Assembly: GCF_001447385.1 (NCBI RefSeq)
Contig: NZ_LLWQ01000215.1
Location: forward strand, 137,469-161,468
Length of the DNA stretch: 24,000 nt
From: Paracoccus sp. MKU1
GTDB taxonomy: Bacteria > Pseudomonadota > Alphaproteobacteria > Rhodobacterales > Rhodobacteraceae
Direction of reading: 5' to 3'
Position 1 is the stretch's first letter, and the number at the start of each line of letters is the position of its first letter. Under the pieces are notes generated by a model, which ran no database searches, was not told the DNA's origin, and saw only the letters and a program-made list of their open reading frames with translations. Shown piece by piece: positions 2,458 through 23,760 of the stretch. The position numbers and the translations under genes are program-made.

Positions 2458-3156
2458 TCACAGATACATGTGCCGGATCGTGTCGTCCTGAAGCATCTCG
2501 GCGCGGGTGCCGCTGACCGCGATCTGGCCGCGCACCAGCAGATAGCCGCGGTCCGAGATCGACAGCGCGGTCTCGGCGTTCTGCTCGATCAGCAGCACGG
2601 TCTTGCCCTCGGCATGGATGCGGACCACGGTCTCGAAATATTCATCGATCAGCTTGGGCGACAGGCCCAGCGAGGGTTCGTCCATCACCAGCATCTCGGG
2701 ATCGCCGATCAGCGCCCGCGCCAGTGCCACCATGGCCTGCTCGCCCCCGGACATGGTGTTGGCCTGCTGGTTCATCCGCTCGCGGATGCGCGGGAACATG
2801 TCGTAGATCAGTTCCAGCCGGCTCTCGAAGGGGATGGTGCAGCCCGAGGCATCGTAGCCGAGCTTCAGGTTTTCGCGCACGGTCAGCGAGGGGAACAGCC
2901 GCCGCCCCTCGGGCACGAAGCCCACGCCGAGCGCGGCGAGCTTTTCCGTGCCCAGGCGCGAGATGTCGCGGCCCATCAGGCGCACCTCGCCGCCGTCCAG
3001 CGGCAAAAGCCCGGTCAGCGCCTTGAAGGTGGTGGACTTGCCGGCGCCGTTCGGACCCAGCAGGCAGACGAGTTCGCCCTTGCCGATGGTCATGCTGACC
3101 CCGCGCAGCATGGCGACGGGGCCATAGGAGGTGCTGACGTTGCTGAGTTCAAGCAT
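2458..3156 (-). CDS. ABC transporter ATP-binding protein, LivF-like (232 aa)
   Basis: Starts MLELSNVSTSYGPVAMLRGVS. Has Walker A GPNGAGKST, signature MSGGEQ and Walker B LVMDEPSLGL. The ATG at 3156-3154 overlaps the 3' end of the upstream LivG-like gene by 8 nt. Confidence 0.92.
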   Translation of the reverse strand: MLELSNVSTSYGPVAMLRGVSMTIGKGELVCLLGPNGAGKSTTFKALTGLLPLDGGEVRLMGRDISRLGTEKLAALGVGFVPEGRRLFPSLTVRENLKLGYDASGCTIPFESRLELIYDMFPRIRERMNQQANTMSGGEQAMVALARALIGDPEMLVMDEPSLGLSPKLIDEYFETVVRIHAEGKTVLLIEQNAETALSISDRGYLLVRGQIAVSGTRAEMLQDDTIRHMYL

Positions 3157-3940
3157 GTTCGACCGCCTTCTGTCCGAGATAGGCCTGCTGCACGCGGGGA
3201 AGCTGGCGCACGGTGGCGAAATCCCCCTCGGCGATCTTCTTGCCGTAGTCGATGACCACGACATTGTCGGGCAATTCGGCCACCAGCCGCATGTCATGCT
3301 CGATGATCAGGAAGGACAGGCCGGGATTGTCGGCCATGACGCGGCGGATATCGGCCATCAGCGCGGCCGTGTCGCGGTCGTCCATGCCCGAGGAGGGCTC
3401 GTCCAGCAGGATCAGCCGGGGATGCGAGGCCAGCGCCCGGGCGATCTCCAGCCGGCGCCGGTCGGCCTGCGGCAGGATGCCGGCGGGCTGGTAGCGGCGG
3501 GCGAAAAGCTCGTCCGAGATGCCGCGCAGGATCGTCTCGGCCTCGGCGGCGCAGGCCTCCAGCTCGCGCCGGGACTTCGCCGGGCGCAGCAGCGCGGTCA
3601 GCACGCCGGTGCGGGTGCGGCCATGCATGCCGATGATGACGTTGTCGAGGATCGACAGGTCCTCGAACAGCCGCGAGGACTGGAAGGTCCGGGCGATGCC
3701 GCGCATGGCGATCTTGTGCGCGGGCAGGCCGGTGATCTCGTCGCCCTGCAAGGCCACCGTGCCCGAGGTCGGCCGGTAGATGCCGGTGATCAGGTTGAAC
3801 AGCGTGGATTTCCCGGCCCCGTTCGGGCCGATGATGCAGGTGATGGTCGAGGGGGCGACGGTCAGGTCGACGGCATCGACGGCGACGAGGCCGCCGAAGC
3901 GGATGCCGAGCCCGCTCAGTTTCAGCAGCGGGGTGGTCAT
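3149..3940 (-). CDS. ABC transporter ATP-binding protein, LivG-like (263 aa)
   Basis: Starts MTTPLLKLSGLGIRFGGLVAV. Has Walker A GPNGAGKST, LFNLITG and Walker B LILLDEPSSGM. The ATG at 3940-3938 overlaps the TGA of the LivM-like gene (ATGA). Confidence 0.92.
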   Translation of the reverse strand: MTTPLLKLSGLGIRFGGLVAVDAVDLTVAPSTITCIIGPNGAGKSTLFNLITGIYRPTSGTVALQGDEITGLPAHKIAMRGIARTFQSSRLFEDLSILDNVIIGMHGRTRTGVLTALLRPAKSRRELEACAAEAETILRGISDELFARRYQPAGILPQADRRRLEIARALASHPRLILLDEPSSGMDDRDTAALMADIRRVMADNPGLSFLIIEHDMRLVAELPDNVVVIDYGKKIAEGDFATVRQLPRVQQAYLGQKAVEHA

Positions 3941-5115
3941 CAATGGCCTCCGTAATGGCGCTGGCGTTGCGGGAACAGCCCCTTGGGGCGCAGAATCAGG
4001 AACAGGATCACCACGACCGAGACGAAAAGCAGGCGGTAGTCGGAAAATACCCGCAGCTTTTCCGGCAGCATGGTCAGCAGGAAGGCGCCCAGGATCACGC
4101 CCAGCGTGTTGTCCATGCCGCCGACGATCACCATGGTCATGATCGTGACCGAGACCAGGAAGGTGAAGTTGTCGGGCGAGATATACGAGATGTAGAAGGC
4201 ATAGATCGTGCCGGCGAAGGCGGCCAGGAAGGCGTCCACGCCGAAGGCCAGGATCTTGTACCAGACCACGTTGATGCCCTGGCATTTCGCCGCCAGCTCG
4301 TCGGCGCGGATCGCGTTCCAGGCCAGGCCGACGCGGCTTTCGTGCAGCCGCTTGGCCGACAGGATCGCCAGCCCCAGCAGCGCCGCCGAGAGATAGTAGA
4401 AATTCGCCTGCGAGGGCAGCCGGAAGCCGAACAGCTCGATGGGCCGCATGAAGGAATGGCCCAGCAGGCTGGGCGCCGGGATGCCGACCAGGCCGTTCGG
4501 GCCGCCGGTCCAGCTGAGATTGTTCAGCATCTGGTGGATGACGATGCCGAAGGCGATGGTCACCAGCGCCAGGTAGCTGTCGCGCGTGCGCATCGACGGG
4601 ATGCCCAGCAGGAAGCCGAAGACCGTGGCGACGATGGCGGCGGCGGGCAGCGTCGCCCAGAAGGTCCAGCCGAAATGGATCGCCAGCAGCGCCGAGGTAT
4701 AGGCGCCGATGCCATAGGTCGCGCCGGTGGCGAAGTTCGGGATATTGGCCGAGCCGAGCTGGAAGTTCAGCGCCAGGGCCAGCACCGAATAAAGCAGCGA
4801 GACGATCAGCAGGTGCAGCGCATAGGTGTTGCCGCCCAGGAAGAACGGATAGATCAGCACGATGGCGACGGCCAGCACCGTGGCCAGCCCGCGCGCGTCG
4901 TGAAAGGCGGCGACGATCACCTCCTCGATCTGCGGGCGGAGTTGCAAGGCGGCGAACAGCGCGCCCATCACCGCCAGCAGCGCCACCACCAGCGGCGTCG
5001 ATTCGGCCAGCAGGAAGGCGCCGAGCAGGATCGCGCCGCCGATCTCGGTCGCGGCGACGATCAGGCTGGCGGGCAGGGCGGCGCGGCTCTGGATATTGGT
5101 CAGGGTCGTGGACAT
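3940..5115 (-). CDS. Branched-chain amino acid-type ABC permease, LivM-like (391 aa)
   Basis: Highly hydrophobic multi-TM protein sitting between LivH-like and LivG-like genes. ATG at 5115-5113, 4 nt after the LivH-like stop. Confidence 0.88.
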   Translation of the reverse strand: MSTTLTNIQSRAALPASLIVAATEIGGAILLGAFLLAESTPLVVALLAVMGALFAALQLRPQIEEVIVAAFHDARGLATVLAVAIVLIYPFFLGGNTYALHLLIVSLLYSVLALALNFQLGSANIPNFATGATYGIGAYTSALLAIHFGWTFWATLPAAAIVATVFGFLLGIPSMRTRDSYLALVTIAFGIVIHQMLNNLSWTGGPNGLVGIPAPSLLGHSFMRPIELFGFRLPSQANFYYLSAALLGLAILSAKRLHESRVGLAWNAIRADELAAKCQGINVVWYKILAFGVDAFLAAFAGTIYAFYISYISPDNFTFLVSVTIMTMVIVGGMDNTLGVILGAFLLTMLPEKLRVFSDYRLLFVSVVVILFLILRPKGLFPQRQRHYGGH

Positions 5116-5119
5116 CGGC

Positions 5120-6037
5120 TCAGACCTTTTCGAAGACGGGCTTGCCCAGCAGGCCCGAGGGGCGCAGGCACAGCATCAGGATGACGAGCAGGAAGGCGAA
5201 GACGAGGCGGTACGAGGCGCCGTCGGCGATGTTGGCCTGCACGATGCTTTCGATCCCGGCAATGGCGAGCGCGCCCAGGATCGCCCCGGTCATCGAGCCG
5301 AGGCCGCCGATCACCGCGGCGGAAAAGCCGATCAGGCCCAGCTGCACGCCGAAGTCGAATCGCACCACCCCGGCATGGCTGGCGAAGAACAGCGCCCCCA
5401 GCGCCCCCGCCGCCGAGGCGAGGAAGAAGGTGAAGGCGAAGATGCGCGAGGGGGTGATTCCCATCAGCCGCGCGGTCGCCGCATCCTCGGCCACGGCGCG
5501 GATGCGGGTGCCGATGGGCGTCTTCTGCATCAGCCCATACATCAGCGCCACGACCAGCGCGGTCGTGCCGACGATCAGCACCGGCTGGGCGGGCAGCCGC
5601 AGCGGGCCGAGCTCCAGGAAGCCCTGGGCGATGGCCGGGAACGCCTTGGGGTTCGAGCCCTGCGGATAAAAGCCCCGGATCAGCTCGCGGATCACCGTGC
5701 CCAGGGCCACGGTGGCCACCAGCGCCATCATCGCCGGCGAGCGGCGAAAGCGCGAGATCACCAGCTTGTCCGCGCCGATGCCGATCAGCCCCGTGACCAG
5801 GATCGCGATGGCCAGCACCGTCAGGATCGGCAGGATGCCCATGCTGCCGCCGGTGATGCCGAAGACCGCCTGAAGGCTGCCGAGCGCCACGAAAGGGGCG
5901 ATCATCGACACGTCGCCATGCGAGAAATGGATGACGTTGAGCAGCCCGAACAGCAGGCTGAACCCCAGCGCCACCAGCGCGTAAATACTTCCCAGAACCA
6001 GCCAGTTAAGCAGGTGCTGGAGGATCAGACTTTCCAT
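5120..6037 (-). CDS. Branched-chain amino acid-type ABC permease, LivH-like (305 aa)
   Basis: I chose the start MESLILQHLLNWLVLGSIYALVALGFSL (ATG 6037-6035) because a GGGAGGAC SD lies just upstream. The N-terminus is typical of LivH family permeases. The upstream 24 codons of the track ORF are rejected. Confidence 0.88.
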   Translation of the reverse strand: MESLILQHLLNWLVLGSIYALVALGFSLLFGLLNVIHFSHGDVSMIAPFVALGSLQAVFGITGGSMGILPILTVLAIAILVTGLIGIGADKLVISRFRRSPAMMALVATVALGTVIRELIRGFYPQGSNPKAFPAIAQGFLELGPLRLPAQPVLIVGTTALVVALMYGLMQKTPIGTRIRAVAEDAATARLMGITPSRIFAFTFFLASAAGALGALFFASHAGVVRFDFGVQLGLIGFSAAVIGGLGSMTGAILGALAIAGIESIVQANIADGASYRLVFAFLLVILMLCLRPSGLLGKPVFEKV

Positions 6038-6322
6038 GTCGTCCTCCCATGTTGATGCGTTGGATTGGTTTTTCCGACGAAGATGACGGCGGGAGCGCCC
6101 ATCAGGCAAATGAAATGCTTGGCCGGATGCTTCGTATTTTTTGAGGCACTGGTTCAGTTAATGCGACTTCTCAGCCGGGCGGAAATCGGTCGATGTTCGG
6201 GGTGCGACAACAAGCCGCGAGACCGGCGAGCCAGCATCCCCGAAAGGGTGCCCGGCCGGCCAACGCGGCAGATCCCAACCCAAACGCGACCGCGGAAACT
6301 TCCGCTTCGACAGGAGAGGTCC
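6038..6322. promoter_or_regulatory. Divergent intergenic control region between the livH-like operon (-) and the SBP/oxygenase cluster (+)
   Basis: 285-bp non-coding gap flanked by divergent starts, locally less GC-rich (about 6100-6170). Contains ATGCTT direct repeats at 6116 and 6128. I could not place -35/-10 elements confidently. Confidence 0.4.
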
Positions 6323-7459
6323 ATGGCTTTCATGCCCACCACCCGCCGCGCCGTTCTGGCCGGTCTCGTGCTTTCGACGGCGGTCTTTGCCGCCCCCGCA
6401 TTCGCCGAGAAGGCGAAGGTCAAGATCGGCTTCATGGGCCCGCTTTCGGGCGGCAACGCCCAGCAGGGTCTGGGCGCCCGGAACGGCTTCCTGCTGGCGA
6501 TCGAGCAGGCGAATGCCGATCCGGCCGGCCAGTATCAGATCGAGCCGGTGGTGCTGGACGACGCCTCGGACCCGCAGACCGGCGTCGGCGCGGCGATGAA
6601 GCTGGTGAACGACCCCGATGTGGTGGCCGCGACCGGGCACTGGAACTCGCCCGTGGCGCTGGCGACCATGCCGGTATTCTCGCGCTTCCAGACGCCGCTG
6701 GTGATCTGGGGCGCGATCTCTCCGGCGATCACCGAGCAGAACCTGCCCGAGGTGACGCGCGTCACCCCGACGCTTTTGACCGAGAACCAGCCGCTTTCGG
6801 AATGGATGGTCAAGGATCTGGGCGCCAAGCGCATCGCCGTCATCGCCGACACCTCGGATTACGGCAAGTCGAACGCCGAGGCGATTGCCGAATTCGTCCC
6901 GGCGGCGGGCGGCGAGGTGGTCTCGACCGACCTGCTGCCGGTGGGCTCGACCGATTTTCGCACCGTCCTGACCTCGCTGAAGGGCAAGCAGGTCGATGCG
7001 GTCTATTTCGGCGGCGTCATCACCGAGGCCGGCATCCTGGCCCGGCAGATGAAGGAAGTCGGGCTGGACAAGCCGATGCTGGGCATCTCGGGCTTCTACG
7101 ACCCGGAATTCATCGCGGTGGCGGGCGACGCGGCCTCGAACACCATCGTCTCCTATCCGGTGGCCTCGCAGACGCCGAAGCTGGCCAAGATGGAGGCCGA
7201 CTACCAGGCCAAGGGCTTCGCCGAACCGATGAGCCCCTATACGAAATACGCCTTCGATGCCGCGAACATCATCATCCAGGCGATCAACGAGGTCGGGGTC
7301 GAGAACAAGGCCAAGCTGGCCGAGACGATCCGCGCGATCCAGCATGACGGCGCCACCGGCCAGATCACCTTCGACGCGAACGGCCAGACCCAGACCCCCA
7401 TCGCCATCGAGCTGAAGACCGTCAAGGACGGCGCCTGGACCACCTATGCCAAGTCCTGA
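6323..7459 (+). CDS. Periplasmic substrate-binding protein, LivK/Leu-Ile-Val-binding family (378 aa)
   Basis: Starts MAFMPTTRRAVLAGLVLSTAVFAAPAFA (signal peptide with RR). The mature part begins EKAKVKIGFMGPLSGGNAQQG, typical of type-I amino-acid binding proteins. A GGAGAGG SD lies upstream of the ATG at 6323. Confidence 0.88.
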   Translation: MAFMPTTRRAVLAGLVLSTAVFAAPAFAEKAKVKIGFMGPLSGGNAQQGLGARNGFLLAIEQANADPAGQYQIEPVVLDDASDPQTGVGAAMKLVNDPDVVAATGHWNSPVALATMPVFSRFQTPLVIWGAISPAITEQNLPEVTRVTPTLLTENQPLSEWMVKDLGAKRIAVIADTSDYGKSNAEAIAEFVPAAGGEVVSTDLLPVGSTDFRTVLTSLKGKQVDAVYFGGVITEAGILARQMKEVGLDKPMLGISGFYDPEFIAVAGDAASNTIVSYPVASQTPKLAKMEADYQAKGFAEPMSPYTKYAFDAANIIIQAINEVGVENKAKLAETIRAIQHDGATGQITFDANGQTQTPIAIELKTVKDGAWTTYAKS

Positions 7460-7497
7460 CGCCCGCTGATCCGATCCATCCCCGCCGGCCGATCCCG

Positions 7498-7519
7498 CCC
7501 CTGCGAACGTTTGCAGGGG
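7498..7519 (+). terminator. Near-perfect palindrome/hairpin downstream of the SBP gene (terminator, attenuator or operator)
   Basis: CCCCTGCGAACGTTTGCAGGGG has a 7-bp GC-rich outer stem and is centred on AACGTT. It lies 39 nt after the stop at 7459 and 88 nt before the next ATG. No U-tract. Confidence 0.35.
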
Positions 7520-7606
7520 ACGGGAGAGGTCTGCCCGATCCCCCCCGCCGAGGGCCAGCGCGCCCGGGCCGAACCCATCCGCCGAAAGGCCAATCCCGAG
7601 GAAATC

Positions 7607-9061
7607 ATGTTAAGAACCGGAGAACAGTATCGCGACTCCATCCGCGACGGCCGCCGCGTCTGGATCAATGGCGAGCGCGTGCAGGACATCACCCGGCATC
7701 CGATGTTCAAGCCGCTGGTCGATATCCGCGCGCATATCTACGACATGGCCCATGCCGAGGCCACGCGCGACCTGATGAGCTACGAGGAGAACGGCGAGCG
7801 TTTCTCGGTCGGGCTCAAGCTGCCCTTCACCCGCGAGGACTGGCGCGCCAAGCGCGCCGCCACCAACGCGGTTCTGGAAGAGGTGGGCGGCATCGTCACC
7901 CGCGTCGGCGACGAGACGGCGGGCGAGATGTGGTCGCTGTTCGACGGCCAGGACATCCTGAACGAGGTGGATCCGCGCTTTTCGGAAAACATCCGCAACC
8001 ACATCCACCGCGTCATCATGACCGACCCCTTCCACGTCTCGGCCAATACCGATCCCAAGGGCGACCGCTCCAAGCGGCCGCAGGACCAGGACCCGGACAT
8101 GCTGCTGCACGTGGTCAAGGAAACCGACGCGGGCATCATCGTGCGCGGCGCGAAATACGAGACCGCCGCCGCCTATGCCAACCAGGCCTTCACCAAGCCG
8201 ACCATCGCCAACTGGGGCAACGAGGCCATGTCGGATTACGCGGTGGGCTTCGTGTGCGACTTTTCCTCGCCCAACCTGCGCTTCATCGCCCGCACCGGCT
8301 TTGCCGGCCGCGCGCCGGCCCGGGACTATCCGCTGTCGAACCGCTTCGACGAGGTCGAGACGCTGGTGATCTATGACGACGTGCTGATCCCGTGGGAAAA
8401 CGTGCTGTTCTACCAGCACACCAAGGCCGCGACCTTCATCCGCGCCACGCTGCACCGCTATTCCGCCTTTGCCTTCGTGCAGCGCAACCTCAAGCTTGCC
8501 GACCTCTTGATCGGCGCGGCGCTGTGGAACGTGCGCCAGACCGGGCTGGAGCATCAGCCGGCCGTGCAGGAAAAGCTGGCGACGCTGGCCTGCTACCGCG
8601 AGGGGATCAACGCCCACCTGACCGCGGCCATCGCCGAGGCCGAAGAAAGCCCCGGCGGGCTGATGATGCCGAACCAGTCGCTGCTGATGACCGGCCGGGT
8701 GCTGGCCTGTTCGCAGCTGCATCACATGATGCATCTGGCGCGCGAGCTTTGCGGCGGCCAGATCTGCATCACCCCCGATGCCGCCTGTTTCGAGGACCCC
8801 GAAACCGCGCCCTGGCTCGACAAGTTCTATACGCTGAACGAGAACTGGGGCAGCGAGGATCGCCGCAAGCTTCTGGCCTATGCGCGCGACCTGCTGAACT
8901 CGGACTATGCCGGCCACCGGCTGACCTTCCAGCTTTTCGCGCAATCCCCGCCCTTCGCCCATCTGGCTGCCGTCTATCGCAACTTCGACTGGAACGAGGC
9001 GCTGCGCTTCACCCACAAATCCGCGGGCCTGTCCGATCAGGTCTGGGGCACGAAACACTGA
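7607..9061 (+). CDS. 4-hydroxyphenylacetate 3-hydroxylase (HpaB) family protein, oxygenase component of a two-component flavin monooxygenase (484 aa); substrate unknown
   Basis: Alignable by eye to E. coli HpaB. Matching blocks include GEQYRDSIRDGRRVWINGERVQDITRHP, VKETDAGIIVRGAK and DYPLSNRFDEVETLVIYDDVLIPWENVL. The ATG at 7607 fits where homology begins. The upstream 32 codons of the track ORF are rejected. Confidence 0.88.
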   Translation: MLRTGEQYRDSIRDGRRVWINGERVQDITRHPMFKPLVDIRAHIYDMAHAEATRDLMSYEENGERFSVGLKLPFTREDWRAKRAATNAVLEEVGGIVTRVGDETAGEMWSLFDGQDILNEVDPRFSENIRNHIHRVIMTDPFHVSANTDPKGDRSKRPQDQDPDMLLHVVKETDAGIIVRGAKYETAAAYANQAFTKPTIANWGNEAMSDYAVGFVCDFSSPNLRFIARTGFAGRAPARDYPLSNRFDEVETLVIYDDVLIPWENVLFYQHTKAATFIRATLHRYSAFAFVQRNLKLADLLIGAALWNVRQTGLEHQPAVQEKLATLACYREGINAHLTAAIAEAEESPGGLMMPNQSLLMTGRVLACSQLHHMMHLARELCGGQICITPDAACFEDPETAPWLDKFYTLNENWGSEDRRKLLAYARDLLNSDYAGHRLTFQLFAQSPPFAHLAAVYRNFDWNEALRFTHKSAGLSDQVWGTKH

Positions 9062-9079
9062 ATGACCGGAGCAGACACC

Positions 9080-9499
9080 ATGACCATCCATCACCGCATC
9101 CGCCCCTTCAACACCAAGGAAACCTATCCCGAGCAGAAGCTGAACAACGACCTGAGCCAGGGCGTCGTCGCCCGCGGCACCATGGTCTTCCTGCGCGGCC
9201 AGGTCTCGCAGGACCTCGAGACCCGCGAATGCCTGCATGTCGGCGACCCGGCGGCGCAGACCCGCAAGACCATGGAAAACATCCGGATGCTGCTGGAAGA
9301 GGCGGGCTCGCGGATGGAGCATATCTGCCGCATCGTCGTCTATGTGACCGACATCCGCTATCGCGAGGCGGTCTATCAGGAGATGGGCAAGCATCTGCAA
9401 GGCGTGCATCCCTGCTCGACCGGCATCGTGGTCCCGGCGCTGGCCCGGCCCGAATGGGTGGTCGAGATCGAGGCCACCGCCGTCATCCCGGACGCATGA
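9080..9499 (+). CDS. RidA/YjgF/endoribonuclease L-PSP family protein (about 139 aa; alternative start at 9062 gives 145 aa)
   Basis: Size and sequence are typical of RidA-family proteins (GQVSQDLE.., AQTRKTMENIRMLLEEAG, IVVYVTDI, VEIEATAV). GGAG at 9068-9071 is well spaced for the ATG at 9080. The ATG at 9062 directly abuts the TGA of the upstream gene, so either start is possible. Confidence 0.85.
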   Translation: MTIHHRIRPFNTKETYPEQKLNNDLSQGVVARGTMVFLRGQVSQDLETRECLHVGDPAAQTRKTMENIRMLLEEAGSRMEHICRIVVYVTDIRYREAVYQEMGKHLQGVHPCSTGIVVPALARPEWVVEIEATAVIPDA

Positions 9500-9506
9500 G
9501 GCGGGC

Positions 9507-10184
9507 ATGACCTTCTCGATCTCCGCCCGCTGCCCCGAGACCGGCATGTTCGGCATCGCGGTCTCCTCCTCCTCGCCCTGCGTGGCGGCGCGTTGCGCCC
9601 ATGCGCGGGCGGGCGTGGGGGTGGTCGCGACCCAGAACGTCACCGATCCGAGCCTGGGGCCGAAGGGGCTGGACCTGATGGCGCAGGGGCTTTCCGCGGC
9701 GCAGGCGCTGGAGCGGCTGGTGGCCGAGGCGCCGCATGTCGAATACCGCCAGCTGGCGCTGGTCGATGCGGCGGGCGGCACCGCCGGGCGTTCCGGCGCC
9801 CGGACGCTGGGCACGCATGGCATCGCCTATGGCGAGGGCGTGGCGGCGGCGGGCAACCTGCTTCGCTCGGACGAGATCCCGCGGAAGATGGTCGATGCCT
9901 TCATGGCGGCCAGCGGCCGGCATCTGGGCGACCGGCTGTTGGCGGGCATGCGCGCCTCGGTCGCCGCCGGCGGCGAGGAGGGGCCGGTGCATTCCATGGG
10001 CATGCTGATCGTGGACAGGGTGAGCTGGCCCATAGCCGACCTGCGCATCGACTGGAGCGAGGGCGATCCCATCGAGGATTGCGCCGCCCTGTGGGAACGC
10101 TGGCGGCTCGAGATGGACGCCTATGTGACCCGCGCGCTGAACCCCGACGCCGCGCCCAGCTATGGCGTGCCCGGCGACGAATGA
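9507..10184 (+). CDS. DUF1028 family protein (Ntn-hydrolase-like fold), 225 aa
   Basis: The N-terminus MTFSISARCPETGMFGIAVSSSSPCVAARC matches the characteristic MTFSI..D/CPETG..GVAV start of DUF1028 proteins as I remember them. Starts 7 nt after the RidA stop. Confidence 0.8.
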   Translation: MTFSISARCPETGMFGIAVSSSSPCVAARCAHARAGVGVVATQNVTDPSLGPKGLDLMAQGLSAAQALERLVAEAPHVEYRQLALVDAAGGTAGRSGARTLGTHGIAYGEGVAAAGNLLRSDEIPRKMVDAFMAASGRHLGDRLLAGMRASVAAGGEEGPVHSMGMLIVDRVSWPIADLRIDWSEGDPIEDCAALWERWRLEMDAYVTRALNPDAAPSYGVPGDE

Positions 10185-10239
10185 TCCCCCCAACTCGGGG
10201 GCGGCCCGTGCCGCCCCCGGTCTTTGCGACGAGATTTCC

Positions 10240-11409
10240 ATGACCGCGATCCCCTCGACCGTCGATATCCTGCGCCGGCTGGTCGCCTATCAGACGGTGT
10301 CCCGCCGCCCGAACCTCGACCTGCTGGACTATGTCGAGGGGCTGCTGCGTCCCGCTGGGGCGCGCGTCGAACGCTTCGCGCATGCCGATGGCAGCCGCGC
10401 CAATCTGTGGGCGACCATCGGTCCCGAGGGGCCGGGCGGCGTGGTGCTGTCGGGCCATACCGACGTGGTGCCGGTGACCGGCCAGGACTGGAGCCTGGAC
10501 CCCTTTGCCCTGACCGAGCGCGACGGGCTCTATTACGGGCGCGGCACGGCGGACATGAAGGGCTTCGTCGCCGCCGCCATCCATGCCGCCCTGCATGCCG
10601 CCCGGCGCGATTTGCGGATGCCGCTGCATCTGGCGCTGTCCTATGACGAGGAAATCGGCTGCATGGGCGTGCGTGGCATGATCGAGGCGCTGGCCGCGCG
10701 TCCCGACCGTCCGGCGCTGTGCATCGTGGGCGAGCCGACCGGCATGCGCATCGCCGCCGGCCACAAGGGCAAGGCGGCCTATCGCGCCTGCTGCCATGGC
10801 CGCGAGGGCCATTCGGCGCTGGCTCCGAACGCGCTGAACGCCTTGCATCTGGGCGCGGCCTTCGTCGCCGGGCTTCAGGTCCGGCAGCAGGAACTGGCCA
10901 GCAGCGGTGCCCGCGACCCTGCCTATGACATTCCCTATTCCACCATCCATGCCGGCATCATGCAGGGCGGCACGGCGCTGAACATCGTGCCGAACCGCTG
11001 CGAGATCGATTTCGAGATCCGCAACATCGTCGCCGACGACCCTGCCGCGATCCTGGCTGCCATCGCCGGCGATGCCGAGGCCATCGCCGCCGCCCATCGC
11101 GCCCGTTTTCCCGAGGCGCGGATCGAGATCGAGACGGTCTCGGCCTATCCCGGCCTCGACACCCCCGAGGACGCGCCCGCGATCCGGCTGCTGCGCCGCA
11201 TCACCGGGGCGGACGGGCCGGCGATCAAGGTGGCCTTCGGGACCGAGGGCGGGCTGTTCCATCAGGGCCTTGGCATGTCCACGGCGATCTGCGGGCCGGG
11301 CTTCATGGAGCAGGGCCACAAGCCCGACGAATTCGTTGCCGCCGAACAGCTGGCGGCCTGCGACCGGATGCTGTCGCGCCTGCTCGATGCGCTGGAGGCG
11401 GCGGCCTGA
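10240..11409 (+). CDS. M20 family metallopeptidase, acetylornithine deacetylase (ArgE)-like deacylase (389 aa)
   Basis: Starts MTAIPSTVDILRRLVAYQTVS. Has the metal-binding and catalytic motifs SGHTDVVP, GRGTADMKG and SYDEEIGC typical of ArgE/DapE-type M20 enzymes. The upstream 26 codons of the track ORF are rejected. Confidence 0.88.
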   Translation: MTAIPSTVDILRRLVAYQTVSRRPNLDLLDYVEGLLRPAGARVERFAHADGSRANLWATIGPEGPGGVVLSGHTDVVPVTGQDWSLDPFALTERDGLYYGRGTADMKGFVAAAIHAALHAARRDLRMPLHLALSYDEEIGCMGVRGMIEALAARPDRPALCIVGEPTGMRIAAGHKGKAAYRACCHGREGHSALAPNALNALHLGAAFVAGLQVRQQELASSGARDPAYDIPYSTIHAGIMQGGTALNIVPNRCEIDFEIRNIVADDPAAILAAIAGDAEAIAAAHRARFPEARIEIETVSAYPGLDTPEDAPAIRLLRRITGADGPAIKVAFGTEGGLFHQGLGMSTAICGPGFMEQGHKPDEFVAAEQLAACDRMLSRLLDALEAAA

Positions 11410-11489
11410 CCCAAGAACCAGCTTCCAATTCGGCGGGTGAGCGCGGAAAGAATGTTGCCACTTTGCGCGCATGACAGGGGACCAGGACG

Positions 11490-12458
11490 ATGCGATTCAC
11501 GCTCAGGCAACTCAGCTATTTCATCGCGGCCGGCGAGACGCTGTCGGTCACCAAGGCGGCCGAGCAGGTCAATATCTCGCAGCCCTCGATCTCGGCGGCC
11601 ATCGCGCATCTGGAGACCGAGCTGAACGTGCAGCTTTTCGTGCGCCATCACGCGCAGGGCCTGTCGCTGACGCCCGCCGGCACCCGGCTGCTGCGCGCGG
11701 CCAAGGAATCGCTGCGCGCCGCCTCCGAGCTTTACGACGTGGCCAGCGACGTGAACGACCATGTCGCGGGCACGCTGAATGTCGGCACCTTCTTCACCTT
11801 CGCGCCGCTGATCGCCCCGGAGCTCTGGACCGGTTTCTCGGGCCGCTACGAGGCGGTGCAGATGACCATGGCCGAGGGCAGCGAGGTCGATCTGTTGGAA
11901 AAGCTGCGGCTGGCGCGGATCGACCTGGCGCTGACCTATGACCTGAACCTGCCGCCGGATGTCTCGTTCATCGAACTGGCGCGGCTCAGGACCTATGTCA
12001 TCGTCGGGGCCGGGCATCGCATGGCGGATCGCAAGTCCGTCCGGCTGGCCGAGCTGATCGACGACCCCTTCGTCCTGCTGGACCCGCCGCTGACGCGCGA
12101 CTACTTCCTGGGCATGTTCCGCAAGATCGGCGGCACCCCCCGCATCGTGATGGAAACCTCGTCCACCGCCTCGCTGCGCTCCTATGTCGCGGCGGGCATC
12201 GGCTACAGCATGATGACCGTCCGGCCTGCCAACCGCCATGCCGAGAATGGGCTGCCGCTGGTCTATCTTCCGATCGAGGACGTCTCGCAATCCATCGCCT
12301 TCGGCATCGCCTATCTGACCGAGCTGCGCCGGTCGCGCGCGGCCGAGGCCTTCATCGACTATTGCCGCGAGGTGATCCGCGACGGCGCCCTGCCGGGCAT
12401 GCTGCCGGCCGAGCAGACCGAATGCGGGCCCGAGGATCCGGCCCATCAATCTTCCTGA
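11490..12458 (+). CDS. LysR-family transcriptional regulator (322 aa, HTH plus effector domain)
   Basis: N-terminal wHTH MRFTLRQLSYFIAAGETLSVTKAAEQVNISQPSISAAIAHLETELNVQLFVR, followed by a LysR substrate-binding domain. An AGGA SD lies upstream of the ATG. Confidence 0.93.
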   Translation: MRFTLRQLSYFIAAGETLSVTKAAEQVNISQPSISAAIAHLETELNVQLFVRHHAQGLSLTPAGTRLLRAAKESLRAASELYDVASDVNDHVAGTLNVGTFFTFAPLIAPELWTGFSGRYEAVQMTMAEGSEVDLLEKLRLARIDLALTYDLNLPPDVSFIELARLRTYVIVGAGHRMADRKSVRLAELIDDPFVLLDPPLTRDYFLGMFRKIGGTPRIVMETSSTASLRSYVAAGIGYSMMTVRPANRHAENGLPLVYLPIEDVSQSIAFGIAYLTELRRSRAAEAFIDYCREVIRDGALPGMLPAEQTECGPEDPAHQSS

Positions 12459-12553
12459 GGCAGAGCTGCGGAAAACACGATTTTGGCCCGAGGGCAAAAG
12501 CCGGCAATCTGCATGCAGGACAATCGGAACGAACCCACGCAAGGACAGCAGCC

Positions 12554-13723
12554 ATGAACGCCGACCCGCAGATGCCCCAGATCCCGCTTCGCGACCGCTT
12601 CGTCGCGGGGATGAGCCATGCCGCCTGCACGGTGAATGTCGTCACCACCGACGGCCCGGCTGGCAAGGCGGGGGTCACGGTTTCGGCCATGGCCTCGGTC
12701 TCGGCCGATGGCGAGGCGCCGACGCTGCTGATCTGCGTCCATCACCTCAGCCCGGCGGCGCCCAGGATCATCGAGAACGGCGTGCTGTGCGTGAACGTGC
12801 TGCGCGAGGACCAGTCCTATATCTCCGAAGCCTTCGCCGGGCGTTTCAAGGACGAGCTGGGCGACAAGTTCGAATGCACGGACTGGGTGGTGCTGGCCAA
12901 TGGCACGCCGCGCGTCGCCGACCCGCTGGTGGCATTCGAGTGCCATGTGCTTTCGGCCGAGCGGGTCGGCACGCATCACGTCCTGCTGTGCGCCGTCGAT
13001 GACACGCATAGCGCTCGGCTCGGCTCGCCGCTGATCTATGCCAACCGCTCCTATGGCTCGTCGCGCCGGATCGATGCGCCGCGCAGCATGCGGGGCGTGC
13101 TGAACGGCGAGGGGATCAAGCTGAAGGTCGGCTGCTTCCACACCTTCGGGCCGTTCCTGATGCCCTCGCTGATCCGGCAACTGGGCGGGCTCGATATCGA
13201 GCTGCTGGAAGGCGACCAGCGCCGGCTGACCGAAAGCCTGGTCTCGGGCGAGTCCGAAATCGCGGTGCTCTATGACAACGACCTGGACGAACGTTTCGAA
13301 TGGCAGGCGCTGAGCGTGCTGAAGCCCTATGTGCTGATGGCCGAGGATCATCCGATGGCGCGTCAGGCCGAGATCCTGCCGACCGACCTGGCGGCCGAGC
13401 CGATGGTGCTGTTGGATGCGCCGCCCTCCAGCGCCTATTTCACCGGCATCCTCGAGGCGCAGGGGGTCGAGCCGCTGATCGCGCATCGCTCGGCCTCGTT
13501 CGAGATGGTGCGGGGCATGGTCGCGCATGGGCTGGGCTATACGCTGCTGTGCACGAAGCCCGCGTCGAGCATGAGCTATGACGGGTTGCCGCTGGTGGCG
13601 CTGCCGCTGGCGGGCGATCATGCGCTGTCGCAGATCGTGCTGGCCTGGCGCAAGGGGCATGCGCTGTCCAGCGCCGCCCAGCGTTTCGCCCAGAAATGCC
13701 GCGAGAAATTCGCGCGGGCCTAG
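12554..13723 (+). CDS. Fusion protein: N-terminal HpaC-like NAD(P)H:flavin reductase domain (aa ~12-168) plus C-terminal LysR-type effector-binding domain (aa ~187-385); no HTH domain (389 aa)
   Basis: The N-terminal part aligns by eye with E. coli HpaC (FVAGMSHAACTVNVVTTDG.AG..GVTVSA..SVS...PTLLICV....., NGVLCVNVL.EDQ....AFAG). The C-terminal part aligns with the effector domain of the adjacent LysR (LKVGCFHTFGPFL, PMVLLDAPP, GLGYTLL, GLPLVALPL). Only about 20 aa link the two, and only 95 nt separate this gene from the upstream stop, so there is no room for an HTH. An AAGGA SD lies 8 nt before the ATG at 12554. Confidence 0.85.
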   Translation: MNADPQMPQIPLRDRFVAGMSHAACTVNVVTTDGPAGKAGVTVSAMASVSADGEAPTLLICVHHLSPAAPRIIENGVLCVNVLREDQSYISEAFAGRFKDELGDKFECTDWVVLANGTPRVADPLVAFECHVLSAERVGTHHVLLCAVDDTHSARLGSPLIYANRSYGSSRRIDAPRSMRGVLNGEGIKLKVGCFHTFGPFLMPSLIRQLGGLDIELLEGDQRRLTESLVSGESEIAVLYDNDLDERFEWQALSVLKPYVLMAEDHPMARQAEILPTDLAAEPMVLLDAPPSSAYFTGILEAQGVEPLIAHRSASFEMVRGMVAHGLGYTLLCTKPASSMSYDGLPLVALPLAGDHALSQIVLAWRKGHALSSAAQRFAQKCREKFARA

Positions 13724-13726
13724 TTC

Positions 13727-13747
13727 GGCGGGGCCTGACGGCCCGCC
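13727..13747. terminator. Bidirectional hairpin between convergent genes
   Basis: GGCGGGGCC-TGAC-GGCCCGCC lies between the TAG at 13721-13723 (plus gene) and the stop at 13753-13755 (minus gene). Confidence 0.5.
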
Positions 13748-13752
13748 ACGCG

Positions 13753-14307
13753 TCAGCCAGCGGGCGCCAGGGCGACGACCAGCGCCCGCCCGCCGCGCCG
13801 CAGCGGTCCCGGCCCGCAGATCAGCGTATCCTGCCGGGCAAGGTAATGCAGGCGGCCGCCGGTCTCGGCCTGCTGGGGCTCCAGCGCGAACAGGACGGTC
13901 AGGCCGGCCGCCTCGTCCATCCCCTTTTCCAGCACCGCCGCCCGCGCGATGGTCCAGGCGTCGCGATCGGCCATGACGTTGAACACCCGCACCGGCCCGC
14001 CGACGGGCCGCCCCACCGGCGCCAGGCCGGTGTCGAAGCGGAAGGGCGCCAGCGGGGCCAGATGCTCGCTGCGGCTGCCGAAATCCAGCACCAGCCCCGC
14101 GCCCTCGATCAGCGTGATGACCCGGTCGGCGCCGGCAAAGGCGGAAAAGCCGCCATCCGTCAGGATCGGCGCGCGCGAGATGCGGATCGAAAAGGCGTCG
14201 CGGTCGCCGCGGGGCGGCCAGAGCCAGACCTCGTCCGTGGCGCCGGTGCCGTTCTTCCACGGCATGGTGCGATAGGCGCTGGCCGGCAGGTGCAGGGGCA
14301 GTTCCAT
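13753..14307 (-). CDS. HutD/Ves family protein (184 aa)
   Basis: Has the motifs YRTMPWKNGTGATDEV, GGFSAFAGADRVITLIEGAG and PFRFDTG, as in HutD-family proteins. I chose the ATG at 14307 (MELPLHL) because AAAGGAA lies 5 nt upstream. The track start at 14325 is a TTG. Confidence 0.8.
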   Translation of the reverse strand: MELPLHLPASAYRTMPWKNGTGATDEVWLWPPRGDRDAFSIRISRAPILTDGGFSAFAGADRVITLIEGAGLVLDFGSRSEHLAPLAPFRFDTGLAPVGRPVGGPVRVFNVMADRDAWTIARAAVLEKGMDEAAGLTVLFALEPQQAETGGRLHYLARQDTLICGPGPLRRGGRALVVALAPAG

Positions 14308-14331
14308 GGGGTTCCTTTCGGGCAAGGCGGA

Positions 14332-15099
14332 TCAGTCGCGCCGATCCAGGAATTCGATCCGTCGCGGCAGGCTCTCGGGGGACAGGATACGGCCGTCCGC
14401 GTCCAGCCGGACCAGTTCGGGCCCGGCGCCGCGCTGCGCACGGACCAGATACCGGCCCGCCGGCGGGCGGATCTGCGCGGGGGCAAGCCACCCGGCATCC
14501 AGCACGCCCTCCCATGGACGGCCGAGGCAGCGCCGTGCCTGCCGCATGTCGCCGGCCAGGATCGCCTCGCGCGCCGCGGTCGAGGAAAAGCCGCCCTGCA
14601 ACGGCAGGACCGTGACACCGATGCCGCGCGCCGTGCATTCCTGCGTCAGGGTCCGGGTCGTGCCCGCGCGTTTCGCGCCGAAATGGAAATCCGCGCCGAC
14701 CACCACATGCGAGACCCCCAGCCGCCGGCACAGCACCTCGTCGATGAAGTCGCAGGGCGTCATGCCGGCGAAGGCGCGGTCGAAGACGGGCTCGAACAGG
14801 TAATCCAGCCCGATCCGCCGCGCCGTCCCGTGCTTCTGTTCGGGCAGGGCCAGGCGGAAGGGCGCGGCCTCGGGGGCAAACACCTGGCGCGGATGGGGCT
14901 CCACCGACATGACGCCGACCGCCCGCCCGTCCGCCGCAATCCGACGCGCCGAGCGGATCAGGAACTGGTGGCCGCGATGAAAGCCGTCGAAATTCCCCAG
15001 CACGATGACGCCTTGGCGCAGCGCCGACCCTGCCGCGATGCCGCTGCGCAGGATCGCCAATTCCGGGCGGAACGGATGGGGAGAGGGGATCTGGGTCAT
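14332..15099 (-). CDS. RibF-like FMN adenylyltransferase (FAD synthetase) domain protein with a shortened, degenerate riboflavin-kinase region (255 aa)
   Basis: The N-terminal module has the FAD-synthetase motifs VLGNFDGFHRGHQ, VGADFHFG and SSTAAREAI. After the LGRPW junction only 59 residues remain, and I see no GFPTAN-like or G.RPT kinase motifs. Confidence 0.8.
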   Translation of the reverse strand: MTQIPSPHPFRPELAILRSGIAAGSALRQGVIVLGNFDGFHRGHQFLIRSARRIAADGRAVGVMSVEPHPRQVFAPEAAPFRLALPEQKHGTARRIGLDYLFEPVFDRAFAGMTPCDFIDEVLCRRLGVSHVVVGADFHFGAKRAGTTRTLTQECTARGIGVTVLPLQGGFSSTAAREAILAGDMRQARRCLGRPWEGVLDAGWLAPAQIRPPAGRYLVRAQRGAGPELVRLDADGRILSPESLPRRIEFLDRRD

Positions 15100-15213
15100 G
15101 GCTTGCTCATCGTCCTGGCCGTTTGCCCAAGACTAGCGAAGCCGCGACCCCGCAAAAAATCGCCATTCCATTGCCAGCGTCTCAGGATTTCCGATGCAGC
15201 GGCACCAGGCGCG

Positions 15214-15687
15214 TCACAGAAAGCCGATCCAGCGCCCCGCCAGCAGCACCGACAGCCAGATCGCCACCGAAAGCGCCGCCAGAATGCGCGCATCCGGGCC
15301 GGGCGCTCCGGTCTCGACTGCCTGTCGCCAACCCTTGCCGATATGTTGCAGGGCGACGACCACAAGGCCAAGTGCGATCAGCGCCATTTTCCAGCGGAAG
15401 GCGGCATTGGCCAGATAGTCGCGGCCCGCGACCGACCACAGGACGGGGCCGGTCGCAAGGGCGATGGCAAGCCCGACCCCCGCTGCACGCGACAGGAAGG
15501 GCGCCAGGACGCGCAGCGCCCCGCCGCGGATGATCCCGACAAGGCGAAGGTCCAGCGGAACGATCGCCCCCAGCAGCAGCGCGATTCCCAGGATATGCGT
15601 GGCATTCACCACCATGTAGAGATGGCCCGAACGGCGCAGCGCCGCCGCCAGGGCGGTGCTCTCGGCCCAGGCCGCGAAGTCCTGCAC
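15214..15687 (-). CDS. Hypothetical integral membrane protein, about 4 TM helices (157 aa)
   Basis: GTG start at 15687-15685, 3 nt after the upstream stop, with AGGA 7 nt upstream. Four hydrophobic segments (ILGIALLLGAIV, GVGLAIALATGPVLW, MALIALGLVVVAL, LAALSVAIWLSVLLA). Confidence 0.7.
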   Translation of the reverse strand: MQDFAAWAESTALAAALRRSGHLYMVVNATHILGIALLLGAIVPLDLRLVGIIRGGALRVLAPFLSRAAGVGLAIALATGPVLWSVAGRDYLANAAFRWKMALIALGLVVVALQHIGKGWRQAVETGAPGPDARILAALSVAIWLSVLLAGRWIGFL

Positions 15688-15690
15688 GGC

Positions 15691-16074
15691 TCAGTCCTGG
15701 ATGCGATCAGGATACATGTCGTAGTTCTGCCCGTCGATCACGATGCGGACGGCCTTCATATGCGCGCTTTGGTCCTGGTTGCGATTGCCGATCACCGTGA
15801 TCGCATCGCCCGGCTCTGCCGTGTCGGCGGTAAAGCCCGAGCGGGCGGTCTGGTTGGGATTGCCCAGATCGACCTGCCAGACGGTGCCCTGGGCATCGCG
15901 GACCTGAATGGTGGGATGGGGCGGGTTCATCGAGACGCTTTCGATGGTTCCCTCCAGCGTCGACTGCTCGCCTTCGGCCCATGACCAGCCGTGATGCGCA
16001 AGCGCGGGCACAGCGCCGAGCGTCAGGGCAGCGGCGAGCATGATGGAGGGAAGGATGCGGGCTTGGATATGCAT
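15691..16074 (-). CDS. Secreted small protein, DUF6152-like (127 aa); mature N-terminus predicted HHGWSW
   Basis: Signal peptide MHIQARILPSIMLAAALTLGAVPALA, then HHGWSWAEGEQSTLEGTIESVSMNPPHPTI. This matches the AHH...TL.GT......NPH pattern I recall for DUF6152 proteins. An AAGAGG SD lies 6 nt upstream of the ATG at 16074. Confidence 0.7.
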   Translation of the reverse strand: MHIQARILPSIMLAAALTLGAVPALAHHGWSWAEGEQSTLEGTIESVSMNPPHPTIQVRDAQGTVWQVDLGNPNQTARSGFTADTAEPGDAITVIGNRNQDQSAHMKAVRIVIDGQNYDMYPDRIQD

Positions 16075-16229
16075 GTCGGACCTCTTTTTCGGATGTTGGT
16101 CGGGACTGCCGCGCGCCAGGTGGTGGCCGCCGCTCCATGATCCGCCAGCGCGCGCCGGTCTGCGCTGACAATCGCGTGAACGCCGCGATCTGCCGGGGGC
16201 GTGATTTCTGAGCGATGGGCTTTCAATAA

Positions 16230-16258
16230 TTGACCGACCGAACGGTTAACGATAACCA
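16230..16258 (+). promoter_or_regulatory. Candidate promoter/operator of the acylase gene (TTGACC -35-like, weak -10)
   Basis: TTGACC at 16230-16235 is followed by the palindromic ACCG-AA-CGGT (16237-16246). TAACCA sits 17 nt downstream as a poor -10. The block is shared with the paaJ upstream region. Confidence 0.3.
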
Positions 16259-16302
16259 TGGCGAGGCGCCGGAGGAGGCGCCTACACCCGGAGGAGAATC
16301 AC

Positions 16303-18675: not shown

Positions 18676-18681
18676 GGTTCG

Positions 18682-18707
18682 GCCGGCCATCGCGACAGGT
18701 GGCCGGC
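18682..18707 (+). terminator. Hairpin downstream of the acylase gene
   Basis: GCCGGCCA-N10-TGGCCGGC begins 7 nt after the stop at 18675. No U-tract, so termination efficiency is uncertain. Confidence 0.4.
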
Positions 18708-18792
18708 ATCCGCATCCGAGGCAGGGGCAAGCCGCATTGCGCATGGCCGCTTTCCCGGCTTCTATGGCAGCGGTGGCGGATGGCGAGGAAAC

Positions 18793-19647: not shown

Positions 19648-19670
19648 AATAGTAAGACTATCTTGCGCAT

Positions 19671-19722
19671 CCTAAAACATCACAAGGCAGGCGAAGTTTT
19701 TTCTTTCTTTGTGATGTTTAGG
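19671..19722. promoter_or_regulatory. Long-spaced inverted repeat in the AT-rich paaX-paaJ intergenic region (candidate operator)
   Basis: CCTAAAACATCACAA (19671-19685) and TTGTGATGTTTAGG (19709-19722) are reverse complements apart from a 1-nt indel. They are separated by a 23-nt T-rich spacer, and the right arm ends 11 nt before a TTGACC -35-like hexamer. Confidence 0.45.
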
Positions 19723-19732
19723 AATGTATAAG

Positions 19733-19761
19733 TTGACCAACCGGTCGGTGAATTGGAGAAT
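19733..19761 (+). promoter_or_regulatory. Candidate sigma-70-type promoter of paaJ-paaABCDE
   Basis: TTGACC (19733-19738), a 17-nt spacer, then GAGAAT (19756-19761). This is 31 nt upstream of the paaJ ATG. The spacer contains the palindromic ACCG-GT-CGGT. Confidence 0.35.
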
Positions 19762-19791
19762 CACCCGCCGTTGCCAAAAAGGGGAGAGAGC

Positions 19792-20997: not shown

Positions 20998-21016
20998 TCC
21001 AGGGGAGGATCCAGCC

Positions 21017-22006: not shown

Positions 22007-22062
22007 GCCCGCTATCGCCAGGAACACGCGCCAGTCGCAGAACCAAGTTTAGGGAGAGAACC

Positions 22063-23201: not shown

Positions 23202-23207
23202 AGCGCC

Positions 23208-23729: not shown

Positions 23730-23760
23730 GAAGGCGCCCCGCTTCAGGAAGGATACCCAC

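Follow-up and report, generated by a model that had tools for sequence, protein, structure and literature searches.

Free reduced flavin is costly and toxic to the cell, and two-component monooxygenases have no built-in means of matching its supply to the presence of substrate. To our knowledge, the single characterized solution to this problem is that of the MarR-domain reductases C1 and NtaB. A 24,000-nucleotide stretch of the Paracoccus sp. MKU1 genome (contig NZ_LLWQ01000215.1, positions 137,469 to 161,468; 67% GC), hereafter the window, raises the question of whether there is another. One of its genes encodes a flavin reductase domain joined to the effector-binding domain of a LysR-type transcriptional regulator (LTTR), with no helix-turn-helix (HTH) DNA-binding domain, and the question is what the sensor domain of a regulator does on an enzyme. 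The original prediction, drawn from the letters of the window, proposed either that the protein is a ligand-gated reductase or that it associates with the LysR regulator encoded beside it. Here we report that the fusion is very probably the dedicated reductase of an HpaB-family oxygenase of the HinF type, and we give about even weight, for and against, to the full explanation that we favor, namely that this dedicated reductase is gated by substrate through a sensor domain captured from a HinK-type regulator.

A conserved two-domain gene family

The fusion gene and its parts are laid out as follows, in window coordinates.

12554..13723, + strand: fusion gene, 389 aa, flavin reductase, linker and HinK-type LysR effector-binding domain, HTH-less (Pfam, GC content at third codon positions [GC3], homologues)
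12587..13063, + strand: reductase domain, aa 12-170, HpaC/RutF class (PF01613, PDB relatives, conserved residues, stand-alone orthologues)
13064..13117, + strand: linker, aa 171-188, variable in sequence and of low model confidence (predicted local distance difference test [pLDDT], ratio of nonsynonymous to synonymous substitution rates [dN/dS], ends of stand-alone reductases)
13118..13714, + strand: LysR-type effector-binding domain, HinK type, aa 189-387 (PF03466, match to 3fzv/6m5f, phylogeny)

Pfam places Flavin_Reduct (PF01613) at residues 20-169 (profile positions 1-151 of 153; 90.6 bits, E 1.4e-25, cut-off 27) and LysR_substrate (PF03466) at residues 189-386 of the fusion protein (profile positions 7-208 of 209; 115 bits, E 4e-33). 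HTH_1 (PF00126), sought with Pfam in the 389-residue product, gave no match, and the domain content described in the original prediction is confirmed. The protein falls outside the LTTRs proper: its N-terminus is the reductase domain instead of a winged HTH, and where an LTTR has its linker helix the AlphaFold model has a single five-residue helix (179-183). Full-length LTTR models cover the fusion only from about profile position 76-86 onward, which indicates that the reductase is joined to an LTTR at its hinge, without HTH or linker helix. The connecting segment, foreseen at about 20 residues, spans about 18 here (171-188); its dN/dS is about 1 or above in four of five distant comparisons and 0.54 in the fifth (L003), synonymous change being saturated at these distances. 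The start codon is the ATG at 12554, with AAGGA 8 nt upstream, which gives a protein of the same length as its homologues.

The predicted architecture recurs widely. All of the best 120 database homologues are two-domain proteins, 56-100% identical to the fusion and mostly 384-400 residues long, and among their sources are Paracoccus, Labrys, Ensifer, Ruegeria, Roseovarius, Sulfitobacter, Hwanghaeella and many metagenomes; a 389-residue protein of Paracoccus sp. PXZ is 100% identical. An exhaustive search of 1.84 billion representatives (50% clustering) returned 23 or more full-length representatives with both domains (37-55% identity), with single-domain reductases and ordinary LTTRs ranking below them. 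In comparisons with three further Paracoccus species, the reductase half has a dN/dS of 0.08-0.16 and the sensor half one of 0.15-0.37, and both halves of the fusion are under purifying selection. GC3 is steady across the junction (0.84-0.94), the region is 94.6% identical to an 889-kb replicon of P. versutus, and the gene is found on complete Paracoccus replicons as well.

These observations bear on the possibility that two genes have been joined by a frameshift or a sequencing error. One related locus, L064, from a metagenome-assembled genome (MAG), does carry the reductase and sensor halves in different frames (9553-10672), as a pseudogene or through a sequencing error. For the Paracoccus gene, the two-domain homologues (the best 120 together with the 23 or more full-length representatives), the continuity of the coding signal across the junction, the selection acting on both halves and the complete replicons rule out an assembly or frameshift artefact, to which we leave a negligible probability. 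The fusion is a genuine, conserved and fairly widespread gene family. Public records name the gene either 'LysR substrate-binding domain-containing protein' or 'flavin reductase', and literature searches for the combination of flavin reductase and LysR domain, or for enzymes that carry an HTH-less LysR domain, yielded nothing pertinent, in agreement with the earlier statement that no member of this architecture has been characterized.

The reductase half and its probable oxygenase partner

Across 59 fusions, R13, S44, S48, P56, G139 and H141 are invariant and T140 is nearly so (at least 90%), so that R13, the S-x-S..P motif and the G-x-H motif are all in place, and these conserved residues are present in stand-alone orthologues too. 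The N-terminal Arg contacts NADH in C1, the reductase of the Acinetobacter baumannii p-hydroxyphenylacetate (HPA) hydroxylase, and the residues of the fusion may have the roles described for that enzyme (PMC11618861). The nearest PDB relatives of this half in sequence are 2r0x, CobR (3cb0) and TftC (3k86), and its fold matches are likewise CobR, TftC and 2r0x; from these relationships the N-terminal domain would catalyze NAD(P)H-dependent reduction of free flavin. Scores against the NCBIfam equivalog models for RutF (TIGR03615; 129.7 vs a cut-off of 254.75) and HpaC (TIGR02296; 102.7 vs 205.95) lie under the cut-offs, and the enzyme is therefore neither RutF nor HpaC as named.

The fusion had been described as the only flavin reductase in a cluster that contains an HpaB-family oxygenase, and both parts of this description hold: no second copy of the reductase half was found in the 24-kb window with tblastn, the Pfam scans of its other open reading frames (ORFs) gave none either, and the oxygenase has both HpaB domains. 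The catabolic genes of the cluster are the following.

7607..9061, + strand: HpaB-family oxygenase, 484 aa, HinF-type; putative imidazole-4-acetate (ImAA) monooxygenase and partner of the reductase (HpaB_N and HpaB)
9062..9499, + strand: RidA-family protein, HinL-type enamine/imine deaminase (Ribonuc_L-PSP, conserved synteny)
9507..10184, + strand: DUF1028 protein, putative HinH-type amidase (PF06267, synteny, position equal to that of hinH in hinFLHG)
10240..11409, + strand: M20 (ArgE/DapE-type) hydrolase, HinG-type, putative N-formylaspartate deformylase (Peptidase_M20 and M20_dimer)

To see how such oxygenases are supplied elsewhere, one genome per species was scanned with the oxygenase alignment and 80 loci with an oxygenase at least 75% identical were compared; the orthologous oxygenases are 75-99% identical across the Proteobacteria. 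The fusion is present at 18 of these loci and in frameshifted form at one (L064), a stand-alone reductase is present at 24, and the remaining 37, some of which are short contigs, have no reductase within 8 kb. Stand-alone reductases stand immediately before or after the oxygenase. The closest of them (63-67% identical), which come from loci of Rhizobium and Shinella (L031, L036, L054), sit in the slot immediately 3' of HpaB, align with the reductase half over their full length, carry SVSADG..PT and GTHH, and end 8-10 residues past a YANRxYG motif, at the point where the linker of the fusion starts. The shared slot, motifs and end point mark the fusion as the pathway's own reductase with a sensor domain added. 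More generally, stand-alone reductases of the HpaC/RutF/TftC class (PF01613) share with it the full-length domain, R13, SVSAD..PT, GTHH and a slot beside the oxygenase, whereas the fusion has about 220 extra C-terminal residues.

An HpaB-family gene accompanies the fusion in the window and at 27 fusion loci; the fusion is intact at 26 of these and frameshifted at L064. In Labrys, Hwanghaeella, Roseovarius and Ensifer the fusion occurs with the HpaB-RidA-DUF1028-M20 set, the order of the genes being shuffled, and at nine loci or more it lies directly 3' of HpaB, which is the classical HpaB-HpaC position; the gap in Hwanghaeella is 8 nt.

The surroundings of the genes vary among loci. In L087 (fusion at 8001-9179) an HpaB-fusion-RidA-DUF1028 run lies between thrS, infC, thiolase and EamA genes and a flavoprotein of the old yellow enzyme (OYE) type; L090 (fusion at 8001-9173) has the same left flank without HpaB, RidA or DUF1028, and in L088 (fusion at 4856-6022) the fusion is an orphan amid housekeeping genes. 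At a Roseovarius locus (L005, 1433-6550) two Rieske-type oxygenase genes flank HpaB, and a gene of the histone-deacetylase family (acetylpolyamine amidohydrolase-like) is present as well. In an uncultured alphaproteobacterial MAG (L046, 9601-10536) the stand-alone reductase and the RidA gene downstream of it share one frame with no intervening stop, and the resulting 334-residue ORF may be a reductase-RidA fusion.

Origin and structure of the sensor half

The regulator immediately upstream of the fusion had been described as a canonical LysR, and it is complete.

11490..12458, + strand: full-length LysR regulator, 322 aa, clade II (HTH_1 and LysR_substrate; top PDB match HinK, E 3e-59)

The effector half of the fusion had also been called its paralogue. 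Homology between the two stands (32% identity over 199 aa, E 6e-29), but the adjacent LysR is not the closest relative. The sensor domain is 40% identical to HinK (PA0218) of Pseudomonas aeruginosa (E 2.7e-50) and 35-46% identical to the HinK-type LTTRs of loci that have no fusion, whereas the effector domain of the adjacent LysR is 32% identical to HinK.

In a neighbor-joining tree of 100 effector domains the LTTRs associated with the cluster (loci L007-L086) split in two. Clade I, the HinK type, is usually divergent and upstream of the oxygenase; clade II, to which the window LysR belongs, is found downstream in the cluster, after DUF1028 or M20. The fusion sensor domains form a clade of their own beside clade I. 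Bootstrapping by the same method (68 taxa, 100 replicates) recovers clade II as monophyletic in 99 of 100 replicates and the fusion domains in 72; a group of fusion domains plus HinK that leaves out clade II appears in 67, and one of fusion domains plus the window LysR that leaves out HinK in seven. Signature columns follow the same division, with 13 common to the fusions and clade I vs four common to the fusions and clade II, and a further 32, including T197, E219, D288, S292 and R320, conserved in all three groups. HinK is the closest relative in both sequence and structure, with moderate support from the tree, and the sensor half is best placed, on its sequence, as a descendant of the HinK-type lineage. 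The identities (32% vs 40-46%) and the tree together rule out a recent duplication of the adjacent LysR.

The distribution of the two clades is suggestive in the same direction. The fusion is absent from all 11 loci with a clade-I LTTR, and fusion loci that have an LTTR always have one of clade II; this exclusivity, marginal at P ~0.05 without phylogenetic correction, fits a sensor domain derived from a clade-I gene.

The same distribution could be read differently, if the HTH-less domain formed mixed oligomers with the neighboring LysR or competed with it for inducer, either coupling flavin and NADH status to transcription or acting as an anti-activator. LTTR effector domains do mediate oligomerization, the window and most fusion loci have, next to the fusion, a full-length LTTR from the same broad subfamily, and the clade-II LTTRs of fusion loci, with the fusion at none of the clade-I loci, would agree with a partnership. 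Yet the two domains, at only 32% identity, fall in different clades, the fusion is without the linker helix that LTTRs use in tetramerization, and clade-II LTTRs occur equally with stand-alone reductases (for example at L012-15, L031 and L036). L079 and L087 have HpaB and the fusion with no LTTR within 8 kb, the fusions of L088 and L090 are orphans, many loci have the fusion in the reductase slot after HpaB, and the exclusivity towards clade I, marginal as it is, fits a simple clade-I origin. We consider such a partnership, which the original prediction had put forward, to be disfavored and rather improbable.

The structural comparisons point to HinK as well. The top PDB sequence match of the sensor half is 3fzv/6m5f (E 2.8e-42), which is HinK, and the top fold matches are HinK chains, with a root-mean-square deviation of 1.5-1.8 Å for most chains over about 203 residues at 39-40% identity; the next are the ligand-bound domains of BenM, RipR, ItcR, QuiR and CynR. 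None of the solved chains among the fold matches spans both halves of the fusion. The AlphaFold model, built from 59 sequences, has two well-folded domains (mean pLDDT 84.4), the C-terminal one having the two-lobed form of PF03466 effector domains, and the whole has the layout of C1, that is, a reductase followed by a flexible loop and a C-terminal domain. With a predicted template modeling score (pTM) of only 0.55 and low confidence around residues 160-190 (pLDDT 45-58), the model does not fix the orientation of the domains.

Among the 59 fusions H196-T197, E219-G220-D221, D241, P291-S292, S315, E317 and R320 are invariant or nearly so, and in the AlphaFold model the invariant residues of the sensor half fall on strand-to-helix switch points. 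In the LTTR effector fold such switch points line the ligand cleft between the lobes. By analogy, the invariant sensor residues would line a predicted ligand cleft, and the sensor half may bind a ligand, for which ImAA is the candidate.

A probable cluster for imidazole-4-acetate catabolism

The candidate ligand comes from the pathway to which the cluster appears to belong. HinK activates histamine genes in response to ImAA, which its ligand-binding domain holds between the two lobes, and controls hinFLHG, whose products convert ImAA to aspartate (PMC8231116). HinF, HinL, HinH and HinG are an FAD-monooxygenase (EC 1.14.13.5), an enamine deaminase, an amidase and an amidase of EC 3.5.1.8, respectively (PMC6467879). 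The HpaB-RidA-DUF1028-M20 genes of the window match hinFLHG, as known from Pseudomonas putida U and P. aeruginosa, in kind and in order. The connection to HinK itself is provided by locus L061 of Pseudomonas sp. UMAB-08 (7220-15931), where HpaB (77% identical to that of the window), RidA, DUF1028 and M20, in this order, precede an LTTR that shares 88% identity with HinK over 295 aa and, after it, an aldehyde dehydrogenase and a class-III aminotransferase, the hinD and hinC families that stand beside hinK in PAO1. The L061 orthologues of the four catabolic genes of the window are 50-77% identical. A hinFLHG-type cluster, with a monooxygenase, a RidA protein, an amidase and an M20 deformylase in order and in association with HinK, is therefore recognizable by way of L061.

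L061 has in addition a stand-alone flavin reductase, divergent and upstream of the hinFLHG-type genes, which implies that the Pseudomonas ImAA monooxygenase is two-component. The published hinFLHG operon lists no reductase, and Paracoccus differs from it in adding the fusion, a Liv-type ABC transporter, a clade-II LysR, a HutD protein and a protein with an FAD_syn domain only. The case for assigning the window cluster to the ImAA branch of histamine catabolism is strong, though indirect, and the HpaB-type enzyme can be regarded with the same strong but indirect backing as a two-component, HinF-type ImAA monooxygenase.

The ligand could nevertheless be something other than ImAA, such as a downstream intermediate or product acting by feedback, or an unrelated metabolite. 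The sensor half is only 40% identical to HinK and has six fusion-specific positions (F198, M318, H325, L327, K335, L371); E103 of HinK corresponds to H196 in the fusions; and a 44%-identical member lies in an aromatic ortho-cleavage operon (L091). That the fusion is so closely and repeatedly linked to the hinFLHG-type cluster argues instead for a metabolite of this pathway, and the precedents C1 and NtaB are both activated by the substrate of their oxygenase (PMC11618861). Gating by such another signal seems to us distinctly unlikely.

The L091 gene (8001-9173) is the last of a Rieske-dioxygenase/catechol ortho-cleavage operon of the benzoate type, with a MarR gene adjacent; the operon encodes Rieske dioxygenase alpha and beta subunits, catechol 1,2-dioxygenase, muconate cycloisomerase, muconolactone isomerase and a hydrolase, and no HpaB gene is nearby. 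Some members of the family therefore belong to a different context.

A proposed mechanism and its precedent

In the mechanism that we propose, the HpaC-like domain would reduce free flavin for the oxygenase, which would start the conversion of ImAA, a histamine-derived acid, to aspartate. A flexible linker of about 18 residues would attach to it an HTH-less effector domain captured from a HinK-type LysR regulator. Without ligand, the sensor domain would keep the reductase in a low-activity state; on binding of ImAA, or of a close pathway metabolite, the two lobes would close and the reductase would be released. Production of reduced flavin would thereby be confined to times when the substrate of the oxygenase is present, and futile NADH oxidation and H2O2 formation would be avoided.

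C1 provides the precedent. In this enzyme a flexible loop connects the flavin reductase domain to a MarR/NadR-like C-terminal domain, which blocks the NADH site; binding of the oxygenase substrate to the C-terminal domain relieves this autoinhibition, and NtaB and the P. putida HPA hydroxylase reductase have similar extra domains (PMC11618861). C1 and the fusion have in common an HpaC-class N-terminal reductase, a flexible loop, a C-terminal domain derived from a transcription factor and a separate oxygenase. The C-terminal domain of C1 is of the helical MarR/NadR type, whereas that of the fusion is an unrelated, two-lobed alpha/beta LysR effector domain, and NF045919 covers the fusion only over its positions 15-157 of 309, leaving a C1-type MarR/NadR domain without a counterpart. 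The oxygenases differ as well: that of C1 has an acyl-CoA-dehydrogenase fold, whereas that of the fusion is of the HpaB family, and allostery in the fusion is proposed by analogy. HinK, for its part, is the closest solved relative of the C-terminal half and is associated with the same hinFLHG-type genes; it binds DNA and has an HTH and a linker helix, both of which are missing from the fusion, where a reductase takes their place. The fusion repeats the layout of C1 with a non-homologous sensor, drawn from the regulator family that senses the substrate of the oxygenase, and the most economical reading would be that a substrate-gated reductase evolved convergently, with ImAA or a close pathway metabolite as activator. 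The principle of a substrate-gated reductase is already known; its proposed LysR-domain form would be new.

With a HinK-type sensor half, a hinFLHG-type cluster and the C1 precedent, the idea of a ligand-gated reductase has become stronger and more specific than when it was first proposed, and we place gating of the reductase by a pathway ligand through the sensor domain close to, if anything slightly short of, an even chance.

Several observations weigh against this account. EC 1.14.13.5 is classically recorded as a single NADH-dependent flavoprotein, and the identity of HpaB with HinF rests on synteny and on the HinK orthologue of L061, not on PAO1 or P. putida sequences. The sensor domain is optional for the pathway, 24 loci having a plain reductase and 37 none nearby, and it evolves faster than the reductase half in terms of dN/dS. 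Its grouping with HinK is only moderately supported in the neighbor-joining analysis (67/100), and members outside the cluster (L091, L088, L090) imply that the ligand need not be ImAA in every case. In the AlphaFold model of the fusion monomer no confident inter-domain arrangement and no autoinhibitory interface is predicted. The affinity of HinK for ImAA is itself low, at 1.56 mM (PMC8231116).

Three of these points, namely the lack of a fixed interface in the AlphaFold model, the sufficiency of stand-alone reductases at 24 related loci and the higher dN/dS of the sensor half, would also be expected of a constitutive reductase whose LysR-type domain senses nothing and serves oligomerization, stabilization or docking to the oxygenase. 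LTTR effector domains and HpaC-type reductases, moreover, both dimerize. A pure scaffold, however, would not need invariant positions on what appear to be cleft-lining loops, nor would it be expected to retain the 32 columns common to all three LTTR groups (T197, E219, D288, S292 and R320 among them), and a sensor dN/dS of 0.15-0.37 still reflects clear purifying selection. C1 also shows that appended regulator domains can be allosteric (PMC11618861). We regard a purely structural role as unlikely, while allowing it a real share of the probability.

The two proposals made at the outset might finally both apply, with a substrate-gated reductase that also forms mixed oligomers with the cluster LysR, or titrates its inducer, and so feeds flavin and NADH redox state into transcription. 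We judge this combination very improbable; if it were true, the fusion would be an LTTR subunit without an HTH, embedded in an enzyme and serving the histamine/imidazole-acetate pathway as a co-regulator.

Gene neighborhood

The remaining features of the cluster are given below.

2458..6109, - strand: Liv-type ABC transporter, two permeases and two ATPases, divergent from the catabolic genes (two BPD_transp_2, two ABC_tran)
6324..7459, + strand: Liv-type periplasmic binding protein of the cluster's transporter (Peripla_BP_6, start read from the sequence)
12466..12499, no strand: conserved spacer block between LysR and fusion, GGAAAACACGATTTTGG...GGGCAAAA (full block GGAAAACACGATTTTGGCCCGAGGGCAAAA), of inverted-repeat character (Paracoccus comparison)
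13753..15099, - strand: HutD-family protein and FAD_syn-only protein, recurrent accessory pair (Pfam, NCBIfam)

In Labrys the fusion gene directly follows the Liv-type transporter operon, and the binding protein is syntenic in Labrys and Ensifer. The HutD/FAD_syn-only pair is convergent to the fusion gene and recurs beside the cluster at 13 related loci or more (L006-9, L012-15, L020, L023, L026, L029, L078). Its FAD_syn-only member has the FMN adenylyltransferase domain without the riboflavin-kinase domain of RibF, and the pair may provide a dedicated FAD supply or have another role in the pathway. The spacer block, which begins just past the LysR stop codon, is kept in four Paracoccus species while its flanks vary, and may serve the fusion gene as an operator or promoter; a scan for promoter and terminator consensus sequences gave nothing above chance. 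No NCBIfam model is specific to the oxygenase, RidA or DUF1028 gene. The M20 gene probably starts at the Met at 10240 rather than at 10162, its NCBIfam alignment in the longer form beginning at residue 27 and its homologues being 385-389 aa long. The rest of the window, from 15214 to 24000, has no connection with the fusion and belongs to phenylacetate catabolism; it holds a DUF6644/DUF6152 pair, a gene of the penicillin-amidase family (16258-18675), PaaX, a thiolase and PaaA/PaaC/PaaD.

Conclusions

If the reductase is gated by ImAA, the solution known from the MarR-domain enzymes would have been reached a second time, through a structurally unrelated sensor taken from the pathway's own LysR regulator, and capture of regulator domains would emerge as a general route to allosteric enzymes. 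The fusion would at the same time supply the missing reductase of the HinF-type imidazole-acetate monooxygenase and provide a compact, ligand-switched NADH-oxidizing module of use in biosensing or in controlling the supply of flavin for biocatalysis. It would also extend the histamine/imidazole-acetate pathway to the Alphaproteobacteria, including marine bacteria of the Roseobacter group and rhizobia.

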